A DNA stretch of 55,629 nucleotides. It comes from Parcubacteria group bacterium ADurb.Bin326 (lineage in GTDB: Bacteria; Patescibacteriota; Patescibacteriia; 2-01-FULL-39-33). The notes under the pieces are model-generated. The model saw only the letters and a list, made by a program, of their open reading frames with translations, did no database searches and was not told where the DNA came from. This document shows, one piece after another, positions 1 through 10,043 of the stretch (position 1 is the first letter of the stretch; each line of letters begins with the position of its first letter). Made by a program: the position numbers and the translations under genes. The DNA lies in the NCBI GenBank assembly GCA_002068915.1, contig MWBE01000009.1:1-55629 (forward strand). The letters run 5' to 3'.

Positions 1-86
1 ATAACCGATATGATTAATATCGGTTATTATAGCAAAAAAACCTTGATTTTAAAAGCCTAGTTTATTAAAAAAGTCTTTTAACGTCA

Positions 87-404
87 CTAATTCAGGCCAT
101 CAACCAACTCCTTGATTTCTTGGTAATGCTTTTTGACCACTTCTTGATCTCGAAAGTTTTTAGAAAACTCAGCCAATTCACCCAGCACCTTAATAATCGA
201 TTCTTTAGTGGGGTTATTAAAGTCTCCGCCGGTCTTATCAAAAAACTTCATTATGATCTGCCGACAATATTCACGATTCATATCCTTATCTTGGGGAGCA
301 ATTCCTGCTCCCTCACAATGAGCCTGAGCAAAACAATTAACTACCACATCTCTTACCATCAAGGGAGTAAGCGGTTCAACCAAAGTTATGCCATACTTTT
401 CCAT
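87..404 (-). CDS. hypothetical protein (105 aa)
   Basis: Intact ORF starting 5 nt after the stop of the receiver gene on the same strand. No recognisable motif. Confidence 0.5.
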   Translation of the reverse strand: MEKYGITLVEPLTPLMVRDVVVNCFAQAHCEGAGIAPQDKDMNREYCRQIIMKFFDKTGGDFNNPTKESIIKVLGELAEFSKNFRDQEVVKKHYQEIKELVDGLN

Positions 405-408
405 AAAT

Positions 409-777
409 TTATTTTAATTTCTCTTTGACTTTTTTAATTAAGTCTGCCATCTTCCAATCGCTTTTAACCAGATAATCCCTGACGCCACGCTGTACTGCCT
501 GAGCGGTTTTAGCCGCGTCATTGAGATTGGTTAAAACAATTACTTTTGCTTCCTTGCCTGAAGGCTCCAAACGAAGCAAGCGCAACATCTCCATGCCATC
601 CATTATCGGCATGACAATGTCAAGCAATATCAAATCGGGCTTATAACTTACAAAAGTCTCCAATCCACTTTTACCATTACGAGCCACTCGAACCGAAAAT
701 CCTTCCTTGGATAATTTATTTTTCAATGCCGAGGCCAAAGGAAAATCGTCCTCAATCACTAAAATCTTCTTCTTCAT
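409..777 (-). CDS. stand-alone response regulator receiver (CheY-like)
   Basis: KKILVIEDD...DLILLDIVMPIMDG...VLTN...K layout of a REC domain. 122 aa with no output domain. Confidence 0.85.
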   Translation of the reverse strand: MKKKILVIEDDFPLASALKNKLSKEGFSVRVARNGKSGLETFVSYKPDLILLDIVMPIMDGMEMLRLLRLEPSGKEAKVIVLTNLNDAAKTAQAVQRGVRDYLVKSDWKMADLIKKVKEKLK

Positions 778-802
778 ATACTAATTAATATTGTTTGCAC
801 TA

Positions 803-3243
803 CTAACTTAGTTGCTTGGTGCCCGCTTTAGCCTTCATGCCGGAAAGAGGTATCTTAACCTCAAAAATAGTGCCTCTACCCTCTTCTGACTCAAAAGATA
901 TTCTTCCCCCGGATTTCTCTATAATAGATTTTACCAAATAAAGACCCAGTCCGGTACCCTCGGTGTCAAGCGCTTTGACGTTATCGGCACGGAATAATTT
1001 CTCAAAAATTTTATCTTGCTGAGCTTTAGGAATTCCATAGCCAGTATCTTTGACTGATAAAGAAATTGCGGTTTTTTCCAAATTAAGAGACAACTCAACT
1101 CGGCCACCTTCAGGCGTATATTTGACGGCATTACTTAAGAGGTTCTGGAAGACTATTCGCGTCAATTTGGGGTCAACTTTAATTTTAGGAAGATTCTTGG
1201 CAAAAGAAGATTTAAACAAAAGCTTCTTGGCGCTGATCGATGGTTGTTGTTCTTTGATGACATCTTCCGCCAAAAATTTTAAATCAGTTTCTTGAGGCTC
1301 GATTATGAAAGTTCCCAACTCCAGGCGCGAAGTATTAAGCAAAGCATTAACTAATTCCACCATACGCTGATTGCCACGATAGATTTCTTCCAAATAAAGC
1401 TTTTGTTCTTTATTGATTTTACCGGCATCGCCATCGAGCAACATTTCTGCATACCAGCCAATTGCCGACAAAGGAGTCCTTAATTGATGCGAGGCCAAAG
1501 ACACAAACTCGGTTTTTGCCTTATCAACCTGTTTTTCTTTGGTAACATCCTTCTCAATGCCGACAAAAAATTTAACTTCGCCATTATCCTTATCTAAAAT
1601 CGGAGAAATAGTGGCCATAGCAACATAGGCTTCACCGTTTTTGCGACGATTATTGATCTCAGAACGAATTGCCTGCTTATCAATCTTAATCCTCTTCCAA
1701 AGTTTTTTATAAAAATCAATATCCATTAAGCCGCCCCACAATTCCTTGCTACCCGCTTTTTCCCCAGCATTTCATCGATGGAAAATCCCGTGATGCGCCT
1801 GATTGAATCATTAGCGTAAAGAATTATGCCATCGGGATCAGTGATGACAGTGTGGTCGGAAGCGCCATCCACGGCCAAGCGGAATTTTTCTAAATCACCC
1901 ACGAGAGCTTCGGCTCTGTCTTTTTCTAATTGCAAATCCTCCAAAATATTTAAAGCGGCTTCTTGCTGTTGTGAAGCCTTCTCATTAAGACTAAGAAGCT
2001 GTTTTTCTCTTTCCTTAGATTCGCTGATGTCTGACAAAATCCCCACAATTCCAGTCAATCTCTTTCTAGCATCATTATAAGTTGACTTGTAAATCTTGCA
2101 ATATCTATCCGTACCATCGGCAAATCTAATTCCGGACTCATAAATCTGTCTACCCGGATTGGCTAATAGCTCTTCATCTTTTGATTTATATATTTTGCCA
2201 AATTTTTGAGGCACCAATTCTAGGGCTGTTTTTCCTATTACCTCTTTTCTGTCCTTGCCCATTACTTGATCAAAAAAAGCCTTGTTGCCGCCAACATACT
2301 CTCCTTTTATGTTTTTATAAAATATCAGACTGGGAACGGCCTCTATAAGAGATTGAAAAAAAATTGAGTCATTTTTTCTTTTTAACCAAATCCCCAAAAG
2401 AAACAAAGACGCACCCAATAATGAAAGCAATAAAATTGTTATAATCAATAAAAACCAACGATATTCTAAAATTATCTGCTCCAAAGACATTTTTCCATAA
2501 TTTTCAAACGGCCTCAACCTCAGGGTCCTTAAGGTGTCAGCTACTGAATTATAATTACGCGGAGTACTCCAGCCAGAGATACCGACCGCCTGAGCAACCT
2601 GATGATTAGCTGACATACTATACAAAGCTCTGGCCACACTTCTTGACAAAACGTCATCTGTTCCCGCAATCTTGGCCAACAGCCACTCGGGGTACAGACG
2701 AGTGCTTAAAAGAAATGGGAATTTATGATCATCAGAGTAGCCCTCTCTTAAATTAATTATTTTAATATCAGCCAAATCTATCTTGCCATCAGATGCCAAC
2801 TTTTCCAGAGTATCAGTCCTAGCTGTTCCTGCATCAGCTTCACCGCTAAGTACGGCAAAAACGGCTTCGTCATGCCCGCCGGAAAAAATTAATTTCTTAA
2901 AATCAGTAAAAGGATTTATTTTTGCATCATACAATTCCCTATGGGCGGCCACCCAACCGCCAAAAGAATCTTTGTTTACAGCGACAAACCTCTTACCCCG
3001 CAAGTCTTCCAATTTATTTATATCTAAACGGTCGCTTCGAGTAAAAATAACTCCTCCAAATTCTGTAACCTCTACATCTCCGGATTTGCTAATTACCGTA
3101 GCAATTCTACTGACGGCATAGTCATTTTCCATTTCAACAGCAGATTCGACATCTAAGTCATTGGAAACTATGGCTGATTTTATACCTTCTGAATTCAATT
3201 CTTCTTCTATAACTCGGGCCAACAAAGAATCATCTTCCACCAC
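803..3243 (-). pseudogene. sensor histidine kinase (PhnD-like binding domain, TM, PAS, HisKA, HATPase), frame interrupted
   Basis: ORFs 1726..3243 and 803..1741 are one gene. The upstream part has a PBP/PhnD-like domain (FGGW, SGGHD, DAGTARTD), a TM segment (WFLLIITILLLSLLGASLFLLGIWL) and a PAS start. The downstream part continues the PAS (DFYKKLW..NRRKNGE), then the H-box SLASHQLRTPLS and N/G boxes (LLSNAVKYT, DTGYGIP, GTGLGL). The frames meet near the A5 run (T5 on plus, 1757-1761). One extra base would fuse them. Confidence 0.75.
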
Positions 3244-3362
3244 CAGAACTTTTTTACTCCAATTTGGCTAAAAATAGTTTTAAACATAAAAAAACTTGAT
3301 TTTTACTAGATTTATTAATGTTAATTATGCTCCTTTTATAAAAAAGTGTTAATTTTTTCAAT

Positions 3363-3398
3363 AAAAAATAACCAAGATATTAACTTGGTTATTTTTTT
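3363..3398. terminator. bidirectional intrinsic terminator hairpin
   Basis: AATAACCAAG-ATATTAA-CTTGGTTATT perfect 10-bp stem, flanked by an A-run and a T-run. Confidence 0.55.
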
Positions 3399-3463
3399 GG
3401 GTATCCAACAGCCCGCTTTGCGGGCGTGAAAAATTTGGAAAAAATTCTTTAAGTTTCGTATAT

Positions 3464-3676
3464 TCGAAGTTCCTAAACGAAGCTAGAACCTATTTTAAAG
3501 GAAAAACTTAAGTTTTTTCTTATTTTCCAAAATTCCAAACCAAATTTTTTAAGGCCGTGGCGAAATGCGGGCAAAAAATGACTGGGGGTTGGGGGGGAAG
3601 GAATTTTTGCCCGCCCGCCACGGCTTTGAAGCCCAAATCCAAAAAATGCTTTTTCCTGGCCGGCGCCGATTTTTCG
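3464..3676. repeat. IR-A left arm (about 212 bp inverted repeat)
   Basis: Reverse complement of 7334..7545 with 5 substitutions and 1 single-base indel by hand alignment. Confidence 0.9.
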
Positions 3677-3715
3677 TGTCGCGGCTACTGCCGCGACAGC
3701 CCCGCCTTTAAAAAT

Positions 3716-4048
3716 TTATAATCGCTCTTTAATAATAGCCATTAATTCTTTTTCGTCTGAATAAATTCCGTGTCTCAAAAAAACTAAAATTATTATTGAA
3801 TCATTATCTATTGATTTAAAAACCAACCTATAACCATCTGATTTTCCGCAATTTTCTTTGAGTGGTATCACTCTCGCTTTATATAATCTATCATTGCCCA
3901 ATCCAGAATATTTACAAACACCGGCCGTTTCATTAATTCCCTTTAAACAAAAATAGCGTTCCCATGCCTCCAATGATTCTTCGGGCGCTGGAAATCGCTT
4001 TAATTTCTTAAAATCCTTACCAATATCGCAATGTCGCTCAATCTTCAT
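3716..4048 (-). CDS. RelE/ParE-superfamily (HigB/Gp49-like) toxin candidate
   Basis: 110 aa. C-terminal ...KARVIPLKENCGKSDGYRLVFKSIDNDSIIILVFLRHG... matches the K-x-R...GKSgGYR(l/v)(i/v)(y/f)...I.L pattern of RelE-like killers. Starts 10 nt downstream of the PanA gene. Confidence 0.55.
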   Translation of the reverse strand: MKIERHCDIGKDFKKLKRFPAPEESLEAWERYFCLKGINETAGVCKYSGLGNDRLYKARVIPLKENCGKSDGYRLVFKSIDNDSIIILVFLRHGIYSDEKELMAIIKERL

Positions 4049-4057
4049 ACTCGCTAA

Positions 4058-4618
4058 TTAACAATCTTTGCCATCCATTTCACCATATTTATTGCGATAA
4101 TAAGCCAAGTTATAATCGATTATATCATTTGGCTTAGTGGCAATCCATGGCGCCTCACCATGTGTCGCACTTTTCATTTCCGATCCTGAAAATTTTTCCC
4201 ATTTATCGGCCACTTCCTCAAGCATTACGAGTTCCTCTTTATCAAAAACATTCAAATCGTAAAGTTGCAACGCCTCAATGTGCTGTTGATCGTTAATTCC
4301 AACACCAACCTTCCTATTTGTAACCTTAATGTCTTGCCCTTTCATTTTTGTTAGCATTGCCTCACCGTATTTAGGCACCGGCCCATTTTCCCATCGTAAA
4401 TACACATCGCCGGTCACTGAATGGCCATATTTTTCAAAAAAATCAAAATCTAGATAATAAAGCAGCTTCATCATCTTTAATTTGCCCAAGGTGCCATTCT
4501 GTATTTTGTTAGCGAAATACAAAATAGAATTTCTATACTTTTTACTGTCTATTTTAGCCATAAAACTCAATATTGTCTTGTTGATTTTATTATAACACGA
4601 TTTTAAAAAAGAAACCAA
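4058..4618 (-). CDS. Panacea (PanA, DUF4065/SocA-like) antitoxin-domain protein
   Basis: LGKLKMMKLLYYLDFDFFEKYGHSVTGDVYLRWENGPVPKYG matches the K-L-x-K-L-L-Y-Y...W..GPV.P core of DUF4065. Start is either TTG 4618 (2 nt after the AbrB stop) or ATG 4561. Confidence 0.7.
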   Translation of the reverse strand: MVSFLKSCYNKINKTILSFMAKIDSKKYRNSILYFANKIQNGTLGKLKMMKLLYYLDFDFFEKYGHSVTGDVYLRWENGPVPKYGEAMLTKMKGQDIKVTNRKVGVGINDQQHIEALQLYDLNVFDKEELVMLEEVADKWEKFSGSEMKSATHGEAPWIATKPNDIIDYNLAYYRNKYGEMDGKDC

Positions 4619-4619
4619 A

Positions 4620-4775
4620 CTACTTCCAATCTTTCATAACAATACTACGGCCCCTAGTTATTATTGTCAACTTCTGCTTCTCTTTAAGTTTCAATTTATC
4701 CACAATCTCGGCAGGAATGACGATTGCCAAACTTCGTTTACCAACTCTAGTGATTTTCCTAATGTATTTTTCCAT
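4620..4775 (-). CDS. AbrB/MazE/SpoVT-family small DNA-binding protein (51 aa; below ORF-track cutoff)
   Basis: Hand translation: MEKYIRKITRVGKRSLAIVIPAEIVDKLKLKEKQKLTIITRGRSIVMKDWK. The R-x-G-x-S-x-x-V-x-I-P motif is typical of the looped-hinge-helix fold. Confidence 0.7.
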   Translation of the reverse strand: MEKYIRKITRVGKRSLAIVIPAEIVDKLKLKEKQKLTIITRGRSIVMKDWK

Positions 4776-4776
4776 A

Positions 4777-4802
4777 TTTTTTGTTACGTAGCATGTTACG
4801 TA
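4777..4802 (-). promoter_or_regulatory. operator/promoter module TACGTAACATGCTACGTAACAAAAAAT abutting the AbrB start
   Basis: Tandem GTTACGTA half-palindromes. Nearly identical copy (27/29) upstream of the recombinase at 7814..7839. Confidence 0.5.
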
Positions 4803-4820
4803 ATAAAATTAATTACTATA

Positions 4821-5384
4821 CTATTGAACAATACCTTTTCTCGTAATAATCAGCAAATCTTTATGTAATTCTTGATCGCCAGCATGTAAGGCATCTTTTT
4901 CTTGCCAATCGATAGAATATTCTTCATTATTTAGCCTTTTTAGAACATTATTTATTTTTTCAAACATCGGCTTTTCACGCCAAATAGGATAAATTTCCAA
5001 CTTCCCATTAACTTTAAGTGAAGAAATTGCTTCACCAACCACTTTATTGACATCTAATTCGGTATCAGGATTTATAACTGAACGCATTAAAACCATATCG
5101 AATTGCTCGGGTTTAAAAGGCAAATTATCGACTTGACCAACTACATAATGGCCTTTGACTTTAGCGGCTAATTCTTGGCTAACTGGCGGTCGCAAATCAA
5201 CGCCTACAATGCCATCAATATTATTTTCAAGACAGAATTCAATAAACTGCGCCTCATCGCCACAACCAATATCCAATATTTTTTTATCTTTCAATGCTTC
5301 CGCGTCTAATTCAAAATCATTAATATATCTCTTTGCTTGATCGCTAATTTCTATATTTTGACTGAATCTTTCTGCATTATGCAT
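4821..5384 (-). CDS. class I SAM-dependent methyltransferase
   Basis: Motif I ILDIGCGDE, then a VGVDL acidic loop and FDMVLM motif. 187 aa. Confidence 0.75.
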   Translation of the reverse strand: MHNAERFSQNIEISDQAKRYINDFELDAEALKDKKILDIGCGDEAQFIEFCLENNIDGIVGVDLRPPVSQELAAKVKGHYVVGQVDNLPFKPEQFDMVLMRSVINPDTELDVNKVVGEAISSLKVNGKLEIYPIWREKPMFEKINNVLKRLNNEEYSIDWQEKDALHAGDQELHKDLLIITRKGIVQ

Positions 5385-5392
5385 AAATAATA

Positions 5393-5857
5393 TTATTGTT
5401 GTTTATCCGCTTTTGACGCCTCTCCCTCTAACACCGCCTTCTGTTCGCTCAATAAATGGAATTGATATTGAGGGTATGCTTCTTGCAATGGCCTTTTAAG
5501 ACCAGAAAAAACGTCATTAATAAAAACATGTTTAACGCCACTATCTTGAATTTTTTCTTTATATCCGGAGGTCAAAACTGCCAAGCCGTCTTTATAGGCG
5601 GTGCCACCACCAGTTCCCAGAGCTGAAGCTAATCCAGCTTTAACATCGGCTGGTACTTCAAATGGAGCAGTATAAAAATCATGGTCTTTGCTTATTCCAT
5701 GATCAAGTAAATTCAATAACTGATCGAGTTGTTGGGATTTGGCTACCCCGTGAGCATCATAATTAATTCCTATCTCGCCATCGACTGTTTGGAACATTTC
5801 ATCATTTTCGGGATTAATTCCCTGACTAACCATAAACATCTCGTCCCTAAGCGTCAT
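5393..5857 (-). CDS. hypothetical protein (154 aa); may be the 3' part of a larger gene
   Basis: Same frame as 5963..6547, separated only by one TAA (5963-5965) and a 105-nt open stretch. Confidence 0.45.
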   Translation of the reverse strand: MTLRDEMFMVSQGINPENDEMFQTVDGEIGINYDAHGVAKSQQLDQLLNLLDHGISKDHDFYTAPFEVPADVKAGLASALGTGGGTAYKDGLAVLTSGYKEKIQDSGVKHVFINDVFSGLKRPLQEAYPQYQFHLLSEQKAVLEGEASKADKQQ

Positions 5858-5962
5858 TCGTTTCTTTAATCCTATATCATTGTATTTTTGTTTTATGTCT
5901 TCTACTAATTTAGCCTTTTCCTCGGGGGATAACTCTTGATTATTAGTGTTATGACTCTCTGT

Positions 5963-6547
5963 TTATTTCTCGTTTTCAGTAGATAGTTTTTCCAGATTAA
6001 TATCAGGAGTCCAATCAACTTTTGCAAACCGCTTAAAATCAGGCATTAAATTATCTACTGTATCGCCTGCTTTTATTGGTTTACCCGCCATGGCCGCCCT
6101 CAATCTTTCGTCATATTCCCTGATTTTTTCCTTGCCGGCACCCTTAAATGCTTCAGCCATAAAATTAAAGCCGGCTTTTATATCTCTAGCTTTTTGCTCT
6201 TCTGGCGATAATATTTCTGCGTCTGTCGCTTCTATTAAGGATTGTTCAACTGGCTGAACTGGCAAGCCTAATTCTGTTCTAATTTCGTTAGCCCGATTAG
6301 CTGAATTAATCTCATCCTCCTGAGCCATTCTTTTTGTTTCTTGTCTTGCTTCTTGAGCGAGTAAAACTGCCTCTTTCGATTCTTCTTCTTTATCTTTTTC
6401 CGGATTTAATTTAGCTTCAATGGCTGTTCGAAAAGAATCGGGCAGCCCTTTCATAATTTCTTCGCTCGATTCTCCACTCTGAATACGACCGACATATTCC
6501 TCAACTTTTGCGGCACCGCCAGTTAGTTTTTGTTCTGGATTGATCAT
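5963..6547 (-). CDS. hypothetical Glu/Lys-rich protein (194 aa)
   Basis: Intact ORF with no recognisable motif. Confidence 0.45.
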   Translation of the reverse strand: MINPEQKLTGGAAKVEEYVGRIQSGESSEEIMKGLPDSFRTAIEAKLNPEKDKEEESKEAVLLAQEARQETKRMAQEDEINSANRANEIRTELGLPVQPVEQSLIEATDAEILSPEEQKARDIKAGFNFMAEAFKGAGKEKIREYDERLRAAMAGKPIKAGDTVDNLMPDFKRFAKVDWTPDINLEKLSTENEK

Positions 6548-6561
6548 AACTTGATAATAAT

Positions 6562-6932
6562 TTAATCAGTAACGACTTCAATTGGCTTGATTATTATACT
6601 AAAGCCGCTATCCATTGACTGTGATACTAATTTTAAACTTTCACCGATCAGGATTGTAAAATTTGAATTTGTACTTGATTTCATCAAATCAATGCCACCA
6701 TTAGCCCCCTCGGTTACTAATCCGCTTGATTGGATTTCAATTTTATTGTCATCAACAGAAGTTATTTCTAAAACGGGATGCTTTATGACGAATGCGGCGC
6801 CGATAAATCCGCCGAGGTCTCGCTCGCTTAATTTGTCTCCTACCGAAAAAACTTTTTCAATGTCTTGTGGCTCAGTAATTTTCCCAGCGAGTCCATCCCA
6901 AGCCCTAAGGTTAAAATTGTTCTAACTTTCAT
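6562..6932 (-). pseudogene. frameshifted small ORF (about 122 aa if repaired)
   Basis: ATG at 6932 opens MKVRTIL... and stops after 30 codons. An adjacent frame is open for 119 codons (6565-6921: ...RAWDGLAGKITEPQDIEKVFSVGDKLSERDLGGFIGAAFVIKHP...VVTD) but has no start. One extra T in the T4 run would join them. The plus-strand ORF 6587..6925 is its shadow. Confidence 0.4.
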
Positions 6933-6955
6933 AGTTTTGATTATTAATTAACAAA

Positions 6956-7174
6956 TTATATTAATTCATTAATATTTTTCTTATACATTTTAGCGAACGC
7001 CTTAAGCTCAATAATATCAAGACGATATGACCCCGATTCGACTCGGGAAATATAAGATTGCGGCCGCTTTATCTTCTTAGCCACCTCAATCTGTTTCAAG
7101 CCAGCATCAAGTCGGGCTTGCCGTAATTTCCTAATAAATTCGGCATATTCTTTTGTCCAAACCGTCTTACTCAT
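6956..7174 (-). CDS. XRE-family helix-turn-helix regulator
   Basis: LRQARLDAGLKQIEVAKKIKRPQSYISRVESG is a canonical Cro/C1 HTH. 72 aa. Confidence 0.85.
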   Translation of the reverse strand: MSKTVWTKEYAEFIRKLRQARLDAGLKQIEVAKKIKRPQSYISRVESGSYRLDIIELKAFAKMYKKNINELI

Positions 7175-7333
7175 ATAATAGTATTATATATCCGAAAAAT
7201 CTATATCTAAAATCTGGATATAATATTTTTATTGTGATACTATATAAGGGAGTGCCGTTTGCGCGCGCACGGGAGGGCGGGGCAAGCGCACTTAAAATCT
7301 ACGGGCGGCGCCCCGATGCCCTAAGGCATCGGT

Positions 7334-7545
7334 CGAAAAATCGGCGCCGGCCAGGAAAAAGCATTTTTAGATTTGGGCTTCAAGGCCGTGGCGGGCGGGC
7401 AAAAATTCCTTCCCCCCCAACCCCCAGTCATTTTTTGCCCGCATTCCGCCACGGCCTTAAAAAATTTGGTTTGGAATTTTGGAAAATAAGAAAAAACTTA
7501 AGTTTTTCCTTTAAAATAGGTTCGAGCTTCGTTTAGGAGCTTCGA
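7334..7545. repeat. IR-A right arm
   Basis: Reverse complement of 3464..3676. Directly contiguous with the recombinase 3'-end copy (7543..7701). Confidence 0.9.
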
Positions 7546-7707
7546 CATAAAACAACTTTCCAAAAATTTCGTTTTTTGTTCGCGCCCTTCAGGCGCGAGC
7601 TTAGTGATTTCTTCCCCCAATTTTTCTTTTAATTCAGCCAAGAATTTAAAATCAGAATTCCAATCCCACCCGACTTTCCGCCCCCAGAGGCGGCGGTTCG
7701 TAATCAT
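7498..7707 (-). pseudogene. orphan 3'-end fragment of a serine recombinase gene (IR-B inner arm, 7543..7701)
   Basis: Encodes ...NRRLWGRKVGWDWNSDFKFLAELKEKLGEEITKLAPEGREQKTKFLESCFMS, identical but for one residue to the last 53 aa of the 7853..9369 product. 159 nt with 1 mismatch to the reverse complement of 9205..9363. Confidence 0.9.
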
Positions 7708-7813
7708 TTCGCTTTTGAGATAATTGTGGTCTCAAACGCGGAATGATAGCCGGCTAATGCCGGCACCGTTTCTTTTCACCGCCTCGCCTTAAAGCGAGGC
7801 GACAAAGCCACGC

Positions 7814-7839
7814 TACATAACGTGCTACGTAACAAAAAA
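7814..7839 (+). promoter_or_regulatory. second copy of the TAC(A/G)TAAC(G/A)TGCTACGTAACAAAAAAT module, 13 nt upstream of the recombinase ATG
   Basis: Hand alignment with the reverse strand of 4777..4802. Confidence 0.5.
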
Positions 7840-7852
7840 TAATCCCTTAAAT

Positions 7853-9369
7853 ATGAAATATTTTCTCTACGCCCGAAAGTCGACCGAGAACGAAGAACGC
7901 CAAGTCATGAGTATTGAAGCCCAGCTGGCGGAGTTGGCGGACTTCGCCAAGAGGGAAAATATAGAAATTGCCGAGACGTTCATCGAGAGCAAGAGCGCAA
8001 AGAAACCGGGTCGAGAGATTTTTAACAAGATGATTACCACTATTGAAGCCAGCGCCGAGCCGGTCGGCATCATGGCGTGGCATCCGGACAGGTTGGCGCG
8101 TAACATTATTGATGGCGGACAAATAATTTACTTAATCGACACGGAACGCGTGGTTTCTTTGCGCTTCCCCACATTTTGGTTTGAGCCAACTCCGCAGGGA
8201 TTATTTATGTTGCAGGTCGCTTTCGGGCAGAGCAAATATTATTCGGATAACCTTAGCGAGAACGTTAAGCGAGGCCAAAGGCAGAAGCTCAGGCGCGGGG
8301 AATGGCGCCATATGGGTATATAAACAACGCCAGTACTAGAAATATAGACATTGACCCAGTCAAGGCCAAAATCGTAAAACTGGCGTTCAAGGAGTTTGGC
8401 GAGGGCAAGCATACTTTGTCGAGCTTGAGCGGACGCCTGTTTGAACTCGGAGCAGTCGGTCGTACCGGCAGACCTCTTTGCGTGGCGGTACTGGCGCAGA
8501 TGATGCGGCAAAAAGCGTATATGGGGATAATCACTCGCAAAGGAGAAAGTTATGAAGGCAACTTTGATCCGATTGTTTCCTTGAGCGATTTTGAAGCCGT
8601 CCAAAAACGATTAAAGAGCAAGGCCAAGCCGAGGAAAGTGAAGAAAGGTCATAACTTCCCTTTCGTCGGACTTCTCACCTGTGGCAAGTGCGGAGCGGCT
8701 ATCACGGCACAATACGCGCATGGCCATGGCGGGACATACGTCTATTATCGTTGCACTAAACGGCTTGGCCCCTGCTCGCAAAAATATATCGGATCAAACG
8801 CACTCATCGAGCAACTGAAAGGACGGCTAGAAAAAATCGCTCTTAAAGACGAGTGGGCAAAGTATATGCTCGACGAAGTGACAAAATGGGAAAAAGAGGA
8901 AAAATCCGGCGGCAAGGAATTCGCCCAAAATCTGGAAATGAAGATTGTTGAGGTCGACAAAAAATTGAACATGCTCGTCGACGAATATCTTGAAGGCAAT
9001 ATTGAAAAAGAAATCTACCTAAAGAAGAAAGATGAATTGGTCAAAACAAAAACAGACCTCAATAAGAAGAGATCTGATTTTGGGCGAAAGGGAAACAATT
9101 GGATCGAACCTATGCGAGAATGGATAAAAGAGGCTAATCGCGCAGGAAATGCGGCTTTGTTAAATGATTTTATAGCAATAAAATCATTTGTGAAAAGAAA
9201 CGGAACGAACCGCCGCCTCTGGGGGCGGAAAGTCGGGTGGGATTGGAATTCTGATTTTAAATTCTTGGCTGAATTAAAAGAAAAATTGGGGGAAGAAATC
9301 GCTAAGCTCGCGCCTGAAGGGCGCGAACAAAAAACGAAATTTTTGGAAAGTTGTTTTATGTCGGGCTGA
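7853..9369 (+). pseudogene. large serine recombinase (resolvase catalytic domain, recombinase domain, Zn ribbon, coiled coil), frame interrupted at 8302-8323
   Basis: N-terminus YARKST(catalytic S)...HPDRLARN...KRGQRQKLRRGEW stops at 8323. The -1 frame continues MAPYGYIN...CGKCGAAITAQYAHGHGGTYVYYRC... One extra G after TGG (8303-8305) would give ...RRGEWAPYGY.... Confidence 0.85.
9205..9363. repeat. IR-B outer arm (3' end of recombinase ORF)
   Basis: Reverse complement of 7543..7701 with 1 mismatch (9300, G vs A). Confidence 0.9.
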
Positions 9370-9434
9370 CAGGACTTGAACCTGCGACCTCGTCGTCCCG
9401 AACGACGCGCGCTAGCCAACTGCGCTACAGCCCG
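9361..9434 (-). tRNA. tRNA-Pro (anticodon CGG)
   Basis: Hand-folded cloverleaf: acceptor CGGGCTG/CAGCCCG, D arm GCGC/GCGC, anticodon stem CGTCG/CGACG with loop TTCGGGA (U33, CGG, G37), T arm GCAGG-TTCAAGT-CCTGT, discriminator A. CCA is not encoded. Confidence 0.9.
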
Positions 9435-9584
9435 ATATTGTATTTTAAAAAACGCTTAACCTTGTGTCCCTGAAACAGCCGGCCTACTAGCCAACTGCGC
9501 TACAGCCCGATATTGTATTTTAAAAAACGCTTAACCTCGTGTCCCTGAAACAGCCGGCCTACTAGCCAACTGCGCTACAGCCCG
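9412..9584. repeat. 75-bp tandem repeat: tRNA-Pro nt 1-23 plus 52 nt of upstream sequence, two extra copies
   Basis: TGCGCTACAGCCCG recurs at 9421, 9496 and 9571 (period 75). Units differ by one base (cttgtg vs ctcgtg). Confidence 0.9.
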
Positions 9585-9587
9585 TGG

Positions 9588-10043
9588 TTATTTATTTAAA
9601 ATTTCATAAGCTGCAATACCAAAAGCAACGGAAACATTCAGGCTTTCTTTTATTCCCTTCATTGGAATATGCACTACGGCATCCGATCTTTTCAGTAGCG
9701 ACTGGGAAACGCCATCAACTTCATTGCCAACAATCAACACTAAAGGAAATTTTGGCTTAAATAACTTAACATTTTTACTATTCTTTGTCAATTCTAACGA
9801 CACCGCTTTAAAGCCACGTTTCTTTAATTTATCAATTAACTGCCAAGCGTTTTTGCAATGTTCCCAGGGCACAGAATTTTCAGCACCTAGCGATACTTTA
9901 AGAACCCCCTTTTGTTCGGGGGTTCCTGTTATTCCGCACAAATAAATCTTTTTTACTCCCAAAGCATCGCTAGTACGAAAAATTGATCCGACATTATACA
10001 GACTGCGAATACTATCACAAACCACATAAACTTCCTGGCGCAT
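9588..10043 (-). CDS. SpoU/TrmH-family RNA 2'-O-methyltransferase
   Basis: 151 aa with NVGSIFRTSDALGV, LIVGNEVDGVS and IPMKGIKESLNVSVAFGI motifs of the SPOUT family. Confidence 0.8.
   Translation of the reverse strand: MRQEVYVVCDSIRSLYNVGSIFRTSDALGVKKIYLCGITGTPEQKGVLKVSLGAENSVPWEHCKNAWQLIDKLKKRGFKAVSLELTKNSKNVKLFKPKFPLVLIVGNEVDGVSQSLLKRSDAVVHIPMKGIKESLNVSVAFGIAAYEILNK

Follow-up and report, generated by a model that had tools for sequence, protein, structure and literature searches.

A probable serine-recombinase island at a tRNA-Pro gene of a Parcubacteria genome, with an inverted internal copy of its predicted attachment joint

Inverted repeats of about 212 bp bracket 3.66 kb of cargo genes beside a serine recombinase gene in a 55,629-nucleotide stretch of DNA from Parcubacteria group bacterium ADurb.Bin326 (contig MWBE01000009.1), referred to here as the window. 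An initial annotation regarded the enclosed segment, 3677-7333, as an invertible or mobilisable cassette delimited by its arms. Are these arms the crossover sites of an inversion switch, or parts of an element of another kind? Our analysis places the limits elsewhere: the real unit is 3464-9363, which includes the recombinase and a second repeat pair, B'/B. This unit is, in all likelihood, a 5.9-kb integrative island that a large serine recombinase (LSR) inserted into the gene for tRNA-Pro(CGG), at its very 3' terminus. Its features are as follows.

3464-3676, plus strand: arm A, left island terminus on the attL side; identity to the internal copy begins at the TCG core, 3464-3466
3677-7333, minus strand: cargo segment, all genes on this strand
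3716-4048, minus strand: ORF without a match in the family search
4058-4618, minus strand: SocA/Panacea, by family match
4620-4775, minus strand: MazE/AbrB, by family match
4821-5384, minus strand: methyltransferase, by family match
5393-5857 and 5963-6547, minus strand: two ORFs without a family in the same search
about 6560-6935, minus strand: decayed ORF, an intact 123-aa gene in the independent contig L002
6956-7174, minus strand: XRE/HTH_3, by family match
7334-7545, minus strand: arm A', inverted copy of A and A half of the internal attP-type joint
7543-7701, minus strand: B', final 53 recombinase codons copied in inverted form without a start, and B half of the internal attP-type joint
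7702-7852, plus strand: region upstream of rec, containing a hairpin at 7780-7800 and, at 7814-7841, an operator-like TACGTAAC repeat
7853-9369, plus strand: rec, LSR gene broken into 7853-8323 (Resolvase) and 8302-9369 (Recombinase and Zn-ribbon)
9205-9363, plus strand: B, genuine rec 3' end and right island terminus on the attR side, with core TCG at 9361-9363
9360-9434, minus strand: tRNA-Pro(CGG), the predicted integration target (Rfam tRNA match, 65 bits)

The island, its junctions and its recombinase

A repeat search recovered the inverted arms as 3464-3645/7364-7545 (182 nt, 97%) and 3633-3676/7334-7377, separated by one indel alone. MAFFT alignment of 3440-3700 with the reverse complement of 7310-7569 matched 3464-3676 with five substitutions and a single one-base indel (96.8% identity), exactly as originally described. 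The other, unrelated inverted repeats in the same 12 kb are all of 34 nt or less and at most about 85% complementary, far shorter and less complementary than the arms, which excludes a chance origin for the latter. The reported contiguity of the right arm with a copy of the recombinase 3' end is likewise borne out: B' directly adjoins A' and matches the reverse complement of 9205-9363 with one mismatch in 159. The two repeat pairs divide the island into a cargo segment of 3.66 kb and a rec-core segment of 1.5 kb, in the order A-cargo-A'B'-rec-B, followed by the tRNA gene.

Three junctions have a TCG core in common (3464-3466, 7543-7545 and 9361-9363), and the outer ends of the arms lie exactly at this crossover trinucleotide, in agreement with the suggestion that the arms are tied to the adjacent serine recombinase. 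The attL junction reads TATATTCG followed by AAGTTCC; the internal attP-type junction, on the minus strand, TTATGTCG followed by AAGCTCC; and the attR junction TTATGTCG followed by GGCTGACAGG, the latter part being tRNA. The trinucleotide encodes a conserved Ser close to where rec ends, and since the crossover thus falls within the recombinase's own last codons, integration would exchange the final ~14 codons for antisense-tRNA sequence (here 'G-stop'). The last 3-4 bases of the tRNA gene come from the island, and the rec stop codon (9367-9369) lies inside the tRNA gene. Arm A is the predicted island end that in the excised circle would follow rec, and it contains a P-type half-site, the ~14 unused native rec tail codons, an AT-rich palindrome and a G-loop hairpin (3553-3624) whose stem covaries across relatives while the G-rich loop is invariant. 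On the minus strand, A' extends B' by the tail SKLLNEARTYFKGKT and a stop codon. A'B' is an intact, inverted, promoter-less copy of the joint expected in the excised circle, that is, a second, internal attP. No empty site for the host was recovered among 14 contigs with the neighbouring SpoU gene, so the attL and attR assignments rest on junction logic and family comparison.

The half-site geometry supports this assignment. In relatives the A side has a GAAC motif at +19/20 and the tRNA side has it at +14, an offset of +5 in 51 loci and of +6 in 12 (63 of 63); in the window, too, arm A carries the motif 5 bp more distant from the core than the tRNA side does. This offset agrees with the published 5-bp shift of the LSR zinc-ribbon motif between attP and attB (PMC3783163). 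The host flank and the B end have AACTT in common, at equal distance from the core. The arms are neither a generic nor a dedicated pair of inversion sites: A is the attL terminus, and A' is half of the internal inverted attP copy.

Domain matches to PF00239 (E=8e-22) on 7853-8323 and to PF07508 and PF13408 on 8302-9369 give rec the Resolvase, Recombinase and zinc beta-ribbon set of an LSR, all three being present in intact homologues of 505-580 aa; with its frameshift repaired, rec would be 506 aa long. The YARKSTE motif is present, and R8, K9 and S10, the last of which we take from family knowledge to be the nucleophile, are invariant in a 14-sequence alignment. The named LSR equivalogs XisF, CcrA and CcrB are not reached at the NCBIfam curated cut-offs (86 vs 375, 79 vs 900 and 55 vs 700 bits), and no phage or plasmid record reaches 30% identity. 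A 10-bp frameshifting deletion at about 8305, between GAATGG direct repeats, is identical in the independent assembly L002. The window's rec is a pseudogene, and this copy has no intact, expressible recombinase. With rec broken and the arms drifted, the copy is probably immobile and most likely a fixed fossil that retains toxin-antitoxin and methyltransferase cargo. Only three contigs carry this island, and neither an excised circle nor a flipped form of it was seen among them.

The cargo list of the initial annotation holds for SocA/Panacea, MazE/AbrB, the methyltransferase, the two ORFs and the XRE regulator, all on the minus strand as stated; the label 'RelE-like' is provisional for the ORF at 3716-4048, which has no family match.

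Layout and orientation among relatives

The B/B' repeat is present in 124 of 162 related loci, rising to 78/93 where more than 450 nt upstream are available and to 42/47 where more than 6 kb are; among the loci with more than 6 kb upstream, 30/47 also have a contiguous A/A' repeat. B pairs have a median arm identity of 99.2% (n=122) and A pairs of 99.3% (n=41), and the shared core forms an overlap of 2-9 nt between A' and B'. In 76 of 111 loci the outer end of B coincides in part with the 3' end of an antisense tRNA. The A-cargo-A'B'-rec-B order is found in two long-read MAG contigs (L050 and L056) and, overall, in several phyla and the output of many assemblers. On this comparative evidence the layout is inherited and is the defining feature of a large LSR family found in Patescibacteria/CPR, Omnitrophota and further uncultivated lineages.

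Past the core, the motif xR[TK][FY][FY] is retained by the internal copy of 74 among 94 loci; the expressed gene, in contrast, continues into tRNA sequence. The Arg codon of this tail is CGA in 73 of the 74, a DNA-level constraint that weakens the argument for a functional tail peptide. No conserved start codon was found at the inner edge of B' across relatives. The operator-like TACGTAAC repeat upstream of the window's rec has a second, inverted occurrence at 4775-4802, where it precedes the AbrB-like gene; the motif also precedes rec in L176, and L175 has an equivalent repeat pair.

We searched the loci for both orientations; the sites are inverted but of unlike type (attL-like and attP-like), and the flipped isomers are rare and mostly in short-read contigs broken in repeats. 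The small HTH gene adjoins A' in 24 of the 26 informative loci and A in 2. Two otherwise identical contigs from two samples (L139 and L140) differ solely by inversion of the cargo plus arms, and the cargo of L151 is flipped too. In L191 and L192 rec reads via B and A into the HTH gene, as in a flipped rec core; where identical arms exceed the assembler's k-mer, orientation may be the assembler's choice, and the repeat in L191 is 126 nt (k-1) at 100% identity. A native rec tail ends at least 16 of the best 120 homologues, as well as P0004 and P0012, which were recognized by alignment and missed by the tail pattern. By script, the canonical arrangement is found in 95 loci against 1 with the native tail, or 2 if L097 is counted. 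The dominance of the canonical form here and in the cargo counts indicates that inversion is rare or counter-selected.

Possible roles of the internal joint

The similarity of the arms is probably maintained by gene conversion, and the arms probably serve as substrates for occasional inversion of either the cargo or the rec-core segment. Such inversion would most plausibly proceed through host homologous recombination, since neither attP x attL nor attP x attR is a canonical LSR reaction. A flip of the rec core would give rec back its native 3' end and the terminator, both of which are stored in B'A', and we tentatively suggest, while regarding it as open to considerable doubt, that B'A' serves as such a spare 3' end. 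A broader proposal is an LSR family with DNA-encoded self-control. Integration at a tRNA gene would sever the native rec 3' end, the silent inverted B'A' joint would store it, and inversion of the rec core (1.5 kb, B' to B) would toggle between tRNA-fused and native rec, gating excision or re-integration without a separate directionality factor; the mirror attP could also drive tRNA-to-tRNA rearrangement in streamlined genomes. Taken jointly, these suppositions are speculative and we consider them doubtful.

Alternatively, A'B' might be retained as a second live attP that recombines with further tRNA attB sites and gives rise to alternative integration, tandem accretion, deletions or chromosomal inversions. 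Both halves have full P-type geometry; the rec core of L038 has a tRNA-Pro gene on each side, one GGG and the other CGG, in inverted orientation, a tRNA or tRNA 3' fragment abuts B' in L039, L047, L064, L069 and L103, and L191 has two nested A' ends that both stop at the core. These states are rare, however (about 6 of 160 loci), and several of the contigs end at B, with the other junction beyond the contig. The B copies of L038 are only 80% identical, and two elements fused by deletion would fit equally well. Repeated attP x attB recombination should also be harmful within a genome of ~1 Mb. We consider this role unlikely.

The arms could instead be the crossover substrates of a Hin/Gin/Cin-like recombinase switch, with the 3.66-kb cargo flipping as regulated phase variation. 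The cassette proposed at the outset survives to the extent that the segment is mobile-element DNA whose geometry allows inversion: the arms are inverted with outer ends at the recombinase core, L139/L140 differ in just this way, the order in L151 is flipped, and assemblies break at the arms. Against a dedicated switch, the enzyme is a 506-aa LSR and not a ~190-aa invertase, and rec is a pseudogene in the window. The HTH gene keeps its place beside A' in all but two informative loci, and terminator-like bidirectional hairpins in both arms mean that flipping would not join the cargo to an outside promoter. Moreover, the paired sites are attL-like and attP-like, and attP x attL recombination is disallowed under canonical LSR rules (PMC3783163). 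On balance a regulated cargo switch is improbable.

We give an equally low chance to a regulatory role, in which the internal attP copy would be a recombinase-binding operator or an insulator between divergent HTH and rec promoters, its long identity a mere by-product of gene conversion. In every case the copy separates rec from the divergent HTH_3 gene and is 100-350 bp upstream from where rec starts; its arm hairpin is conserved in covarying stem and invariant G-rich loop, and the operator-like repeat is common to the rec and cargo promoters. Yet ~50 bp suffice for a binding site as opposed to 250-600 bp, regulation offers no rationale for B' as a faithful coding-sequence copy, and the binding and promoter overlap are putative only.

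It is hardly credible that the repeat arose by passive duplication or faulty assembly, or that it forms the ends of an IS or composite transposon: although no transposition or inversion is documented at the window's locus, where rec is dead and the arms are drifting, the 97% identity of the copies excludes a collapsed repeat, the A'B'-rec-B block of L002 is 99.8% identical to the window, the Logan unitig L004 (3647-7363) has both ends within the arms, and the layout recurs in 78 of 93 relatives from many assemblers, long-read contigs included. An IS or composite transposon was rejected because the island has no transposase domain and the flanks of 3464 and 7545 show no target-site duplication. 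The initial annotation, which saw no transposase, had likewise set the arms apart from the short terminal inverted repeats of an IS.

Relation to known recombination systems

Compared with LSR elements such as phiC31, Bxb1, A118/LI, SPbeta SprA, CcrAB and TnpX, the island is alike in its Resolvase, Recombinase and Zn-ribbon domains with coiled-coil, its 2-3-bp core instead of long direct repeats, the 5-bp motif shift between attP-type and attB-type half-sites and the position of the recombinase at one end. It differs in a sequence far from every named family, an attP core within the terminal codons of the recombinase gene itself, a second, complete attP that is kept inverted inside the element, and a target at the very 3' end of tRNA genes; no recombination directionality factor (RDF) candidate was identified.

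Hin/hix, Gin with the G segment and Cin with the C segment of P1 are small serine DNA-invertase switches, the P1 inverted repeats being ~0.6 kb long. There, as here, a serine recombinase adjoins a segment between inverted repeats, the outer ends of these repeats being the crossover points, and two alternative 3' ends for one gene flank a flippable promoter-plus-5' segment. In the island, by contrast, an LSR takes the place of the invertase, the two sites differ in type, orientation is biased 24 to 2, enhancer or Fis logic is not known, and the gene with the switchable 3' end would be the recombinase itself. An invertase of the Hin/Gin/Cin/Pin type was rejected on the enzyme, 506 aa with LSR C-terminal domains as opposed to ~190 aa with a C-terminal HTH.

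The inversions linked to pTN3 lie between tRNA genes. SSV-type archaeal tyrosine integrases (SSV1, pTN3) carry attP inside int, and integration in a tRNA gene remodels the integrase gene (PMC8371274); a further report links pTN3-type integrases to chromosomal inversions (PMC5495485). The island resembles these elements in that integration at a tRNA gene remodels the recombinase gene. They are archaeal tyrosine recombinases with a different mechanism, however; int is split into two large parts whereas the island's rec loses ~14 codons, and an internal inverted spare copy is not described for the SSV type.

The yeast 2-micron circle is a replicating plasmid whose tyrosine recombinase (FLP) acts on identical sites (FRT). 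The island has no replication gene, and its two targets would form an attP x attP pair, which is non-canonical for LSRs. A 2-micron-like flip-flop plasmid was rejected, as the family search found no replication protein in the cargo and the element is chromosomally integrated. The likeness to FLP/FRT and to synthetic inverted attB/attP latches (PMC6511857) is that the island's circle would comprise two unique segments between long inverted repeats, with a recombinase target in each repeat and the recombinase gene in one segment. Our limited literature search found no description of the mirror attP, and it agrees with the initial annotation, which knew of no described system with its arrangement of arms and recombinase.

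Serine integrases are prized for the simple control of direction, acting on attP x attB only and being reversed by the RDF. An attP inside the integrase gene, with a complete inverted spare attP beside the promoter, would be a new answer to directionality and maintenance. The family would also supply new tRNA-targeting integrases whose att sites can be read directly from genomes, since a single locus contains attL, attR and also an intact attP. The window itself, a decayed and probably immobile member, is a more modest result. Many relatives' contigs start or end within B' or A. MAG contigs of Patescibacteria, Omnitrophota and related lineages often break at these recombinase genes, and tRNA genes in such streamlined genomes are sites of variable small cargos (toxin-antitoxin, restriction-modification and defence-type); the mirror-attP architecture helps to explain both observations.

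Repeats and junctions of the island

A repeat search of the window returned inverted arms at 3464-3645/7364-7545 (182 nt, 97%) and 3633-3676/7334-7377, which on alignment form a single continuous repeat of 212/213 nt, arms A (3464-3676) and A' (7334-7545), with five substitutions and one 1-nt indel; the inverted repeat reported in the initial annotation is real and lies in the same place. All unrelated inverted repeats in the same 12 kb are 34 nt or shorter. A second inverted repeat adjoins A': positions 7543-7701 (B') are the reverse complement, with one mismatch, of 9205-9363 (B), the last 159 nt of a large serine recombinase (LSR) gene, here called rec, which bears out the further claim that the arm is contiguous with a copy of the recombinase 3' end. 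The stop codon of rec (9367-9369) lies inside the 3' end of a tRNA-Pro(CGG) gene.

Features of the island (window positions; a slash marks the junction)
3464, left junction, ...TATATTCG / AAGTTCCTAAACGAAGC
3553-3624, with its mirror at ~7385-7456, arm hairpin, one per arm
4775-4802 and 7814-7841, operator-like 28-nt inverted pair (93%) containing TACGTAAC direct repeats (x2)
7545, minus strand, internal junction, ...TTATGTCG / AAGCTCCTAAACGAAGC
7853-8323, Resolvase domain, and 8302-9369, Recombinase and zinc-ribbon domains, the halves of one LSR split in two
9363, right junction, ...TTATGTCG / GGCTGACAGGACTTGAACC (tRNA)
9360-9434, minus strand, tRNA-Pro(CGG) (ARAGORN; Rfam, 65 bits)

The internal block A'B' consists of the right end of the island (B) and its left end (A) fused at their common TCG, and thus equals the joint of an excised circle. 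Host DNA to the left of 3464 contains two terminator-like hairpins on the tRNA strand, as expected downstream of a tRNA gene. We conclude that a single island, 5.9 kb long and spanning 3464-9363, has inserted at the last bases of tRNA-Pro, with A as the attL side, B as the attR side and A'B' as an internal inverted copy of attP type. The G+C content is ~30-40% in the cargo (3677-7333, between the arms), ~40% in the host flanks and 45-51% over 7000-9000.

The polarity of the sites can be read from a rule described by Rutherford et al. (PMC3783163), according to which the motif of the zinc-ribbon domain lies 5 bp nearer the centre in attB than in attP. We located a GAAC motif in 63 non-redundant loci of the family described below; counted from the core, it stands at +14 on the tRNA side and at +19/20 on the A side. 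The shift amounts to +5 for 51 of these loci and to +6 for the other 12, which under this rule makes the A side P-type and the tRNA side B-type. In the window itself, AACTT stands at equal distance from the core in the host flank and in the B end. Generic offset matching of the two right half-sites yielded a noisy histogram and was set aside; only the explicit GAAC test was clean.

A large recombinase family with a conserved double-inverted-repeat layout

The island is a member of a large, undescribed LSR family that shares this layout. A set of 160 related loci, drawn from collections of genomes and metagenomes, was screened for inverted repeats and tRNAs. Once the window and L002, an independent assembly, are added, 124 of 162 loci have the rec 3' end copied in inverted form 100-350 bp upstream of where rec starts, a fraction that becomes 78/93 where more than 450 nt of upstream sequence is available and 42/47 where more than 6 kb is. 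Of these last 47 loci, 30 have a second repeat contiguous with B', with its partner 1.2-9 kb further upstream, and the overlap between A' and B' is mostly 2-9 nt. Of 111 loci, 76 have an antisense tRNA whose 3' end overlaps B at its outer end; the targets are mostly tRNA-Pro, with Met, Arg, Gln, Trp, Ala, Glu, Ser, Ile, Lys, Tyr, Asp and Phe among the rest. The recorded hosts span many Patescibacteria/CPR classes, Omnitrophota and Elusimicrobia, as well as MAGs labelled Gammaproteobacteria and Planctomycetia, and two loci from long-read Microflora Danica MAGs (L050 and L056) display the same layout. Repeat copies are highly similar within elements: the median identity is 99.2% for B pairs (n=122, 53 of them at 100%) and 99.3% for A pairs (n=41).

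The recombinases themselves, more than 6000 homologues, all of them single ORFs of ~505-580 aa, are remote from characterised LSRs. Scores of the window protein against XisF, CcrB and CcrA fall far below the cut-offs, its catalytic domain alone finds any match in PDB, and no phage or plasmid record reaches 30% identity. Viral contigs contain only distant recombinases (22-48% identity) that lack the repeats. Limited full-text literature searches turned up no account of an LSR element that combines an attP within the recombinase gene with an inverted attP copy inside the element, in agreement with the earlier remark that no system with such an arrangement was known. Near analogues are the invertase switches of the P1 Cin type, which have long inverted repeats, and the 2-micron plasmid. 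Others are the engineered latches with inverted attB/attP (PMC6511857) and the SSV-type archaeal tyrosine integrases, whose attP lies inside the integrase gene (PMC8371274, PMC5495485). The interest of the window's copy taken alone is modest; that of the architecture it reveals at the level of the family is considerable.

Further elements of the layout recur. In 15 relatives the arm hairpin shows compensatory changes in 8 of 11 stem pairs and a conserved G-rich loop, GGAAGGGGGTTGGGGGGAAGG, and its orientation with respect to the core differs between elements; it is a candidate terminator, protein site or G-quadruplex. A Rfam scan of 3000-10000 at E<=1 detected only the tRNA, the arm hairpin matching no known RNA family. 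T-rich runs lie beyond the hairpin on both strands, and the arms are predicted to act as bidirectional insulators or terminators. Just inside A' and directed away from rec, a Cro/C1-type HTH_3 gene of 64-89 aa is present in at least 24 of 42 two-arm loci, the window included. Of the operator-like pair, one copy immediately precedes the AbrB/MazE-like gene and the other the start of rec, which suggests a shared operator that would couple cargo and rec expression; the motif also precedes rec in the sister-strain contig L176, and an equivalent pair exists in L175. The cargo is otherwise highly variable between loci, with Panacea/AbrB toxin-antitoxin-like genes and a methyltransferase in the window and restriction-modification, patatin, NYN/WYL and similar genes in relatives. 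Defence-system models applied to the window's cargo gave only a weak mad2-like match (the methyltransferase) and generic HTH matches.

Many related contigs end exactly inside an arm, and a Logan unitig (L004) comprises the window cargo plus 30 nt of each arm and nothing more. In contigs L005-L164 rec lies mostly within 100-500 bp of a contig end, and many of them begin or stop exactly in B' or A, so that these elements systematically break up MAGs at tRNA genes. The difference between L013 and L087 proved to consist of scaffold gaps only. L175/L008 is a possible excised circle or, given that it carries A three times in diverged form, perhaps an array of tandem or composite type.

Inversion isomers and possible roles of the internal copy

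Each arm is the left terminus of the island or its counterpart, one half of the internal mirror attP. The initial annotation had proposed the arms as an inversion substrate, and a few flipped isomers among related loci support this in part. The contigs L139 and L140, recovered from two samples, match at 100% over 2.9 kb of the rec side, and all that separates them is an exact inversion of the cargo together with its arms; in L151 the HTH gene adjoins the distal arm; and in L191 and L192 rec runs through B.A straight into the HTH gene, so that one segment is flipped relative to the canonical order. Three mismatches between B and B' in L192 indicate that its path is not a collapsed repeat, while in L191, where host DNA follows the far arm, the B copies are identical over 126 nt (k-1) and the orientation could be a choice of the assembler. 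The native tail, the rec C-terminus that reads B into A, ends at least 16 of the 120 best homologues, all on short contigs, and alignment adds P0004 and P0012. The canonical order nevertheless dominates, with 95 loci against 1 of the native-tail type in a scripted call (2 counting L097) and the HTH gene adjoining A' in 24 loci and A in 2. The isomers are thus rare, which is evidence against a free switch. A further point against it is that inversion by the recombinase would need the pairings attP x attL or attP x attR, which are not canonical LSR reactions (PMC3783163). Most simply, the arms would occasionally mediate inversion through host homologous recombination, and gene conversion probably homogenises them.

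Because the layout places a promoter-plus-5' segment between two alternative 3' ends, the most attractive function, possible if somewhat doubtful, is that flipping the rec core, the ~1.5-kb segment between B' and B, would restore the native rec 3' end and terminator. Alternatively, the internal attP may be a second live attP, a reading favoured by L038, L039 and the nested A' ends of L191, or A'B' may be a regulatory element or insulator. Core flipping and these two roles would not be mutually exclusive. That the internal copy is an independent small gene supplying a C-terminal fragment in trans can be dismissed: most relatives lack a start codon at the boundary (the window has an ATG at 7707, the inner boundary of B'), and with no conserved start codon the internal copy is a silent 3' fragment.

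The expressed rec runs past a conserved Ser into the antisense tRNA, which gives it tails like 'G-stop' and 'GCGELNPVY...'. The internal copy retains the motif [LI]LN.[AV]RT[FY]F and a stop in 74 of 94 loci. The tail 'LLNEARTFFE' might be taken as proof of a functional C-terminal peptide, an argument weakened by the Arg codon, which is CGA in 73 of 74 loci, and by the coincidence of the motif with the DNA half-site; the conservation is thus largely at the DNA level and marks the half-site, not necessarily a functional peptide.

Two loci deserve description. In L038 (JAUSEG010000027.1, 940-2937) the rec core has B-type ends on both sides, each fused to a different tRNA-Pro in inverted orientation (GGG upstream, CGG downstream), consistent with recombination of the internal attP with a second tRNA or with fusion of two elements by deletion. 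L191 (ENA ERZ978523 k127_908561, 5647-7237) contains two nested, inverted A' copies that both stop at the core. A Panacea toxin-antitoxin module separates them, and host genes lie beyond; the arrangement looks like accretion of a second, rec-less remnant at the same site.

The window copy and its sister contigs

Compared with its homologues, the window rec lacks the 'PG' of ...RRGEWPG[ML]APYGY..., after which the frame changes, the result of a 10-bp frameshifting deletion at ~8305 between GAATGG direct repeats. Since the identical deletion is found in the independent ENA assembly L002, the window rec is a real pseudogene and not a sequencing error. The decayed ORF noticed earlier in the cargo is likewise confirmed: 6560-6935 has no cargo-strand ORF, and the homologous place in L002 holds an intact 123-aa gene, a sign of cargo erosion in the window's strain. 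At 96.8% identity the A pair is one of the 12 most diverged A pairs, and a single arrangement is all that appears in the two contigs reaching across the right arm and rec. With rec dead, arms drifted, a cargo ORF decayed and a single arrangement seen, the window copy is best described as a fixed remnant.

L176 (JGI Ga0116248_10009466, 2380-4740) represents a sister strain with flanks 99.4-99.6% identical to the window's, an element 88% identical and an intact recombinase of 508 aa. Window 142-7510 is missing from it: 3.3 kb of host genes, among them a response regulator and two sensor kinases, followed by arm A, the cargo and the greater part of A'. The identity between its B and B' is only 88%. 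The loss is a non-site-specific deletion, and L176, which truncates a 105-aa host gene and keeps 32 bp of A', was rejected as a minimal element. In L002 (ENA ERZ15185696 NODE_4757, coverage 1x), positions 347-929 match window 1-583 at 85% and are joined straight to window 3922, inside the ORF at 3716-4048, skipping the two-component genes and arm A; the remainder is 99.8% identical to the window, and the contig is a two-strain chimera or else a variant with a deletion.

A search for an empty tRNA-Pro site through the neighbouring SpoU and PAS-kinase proteins retrieved contigs that all end at a tandem repeat or carry a recombinase. This 75-bp tandem repeat, upstream of the functional tRNA-Pro (9412-9636), has a unit made of the first 23 nt of the tRNA and 52 nt resembling a degenerate tRNA piece, a T-run and a -10-like TACAAT, and it is the end point of many contigs from the window's species. 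The window holds three copies, the third 65% identical, and L176 at least four, so that the copy number varies.
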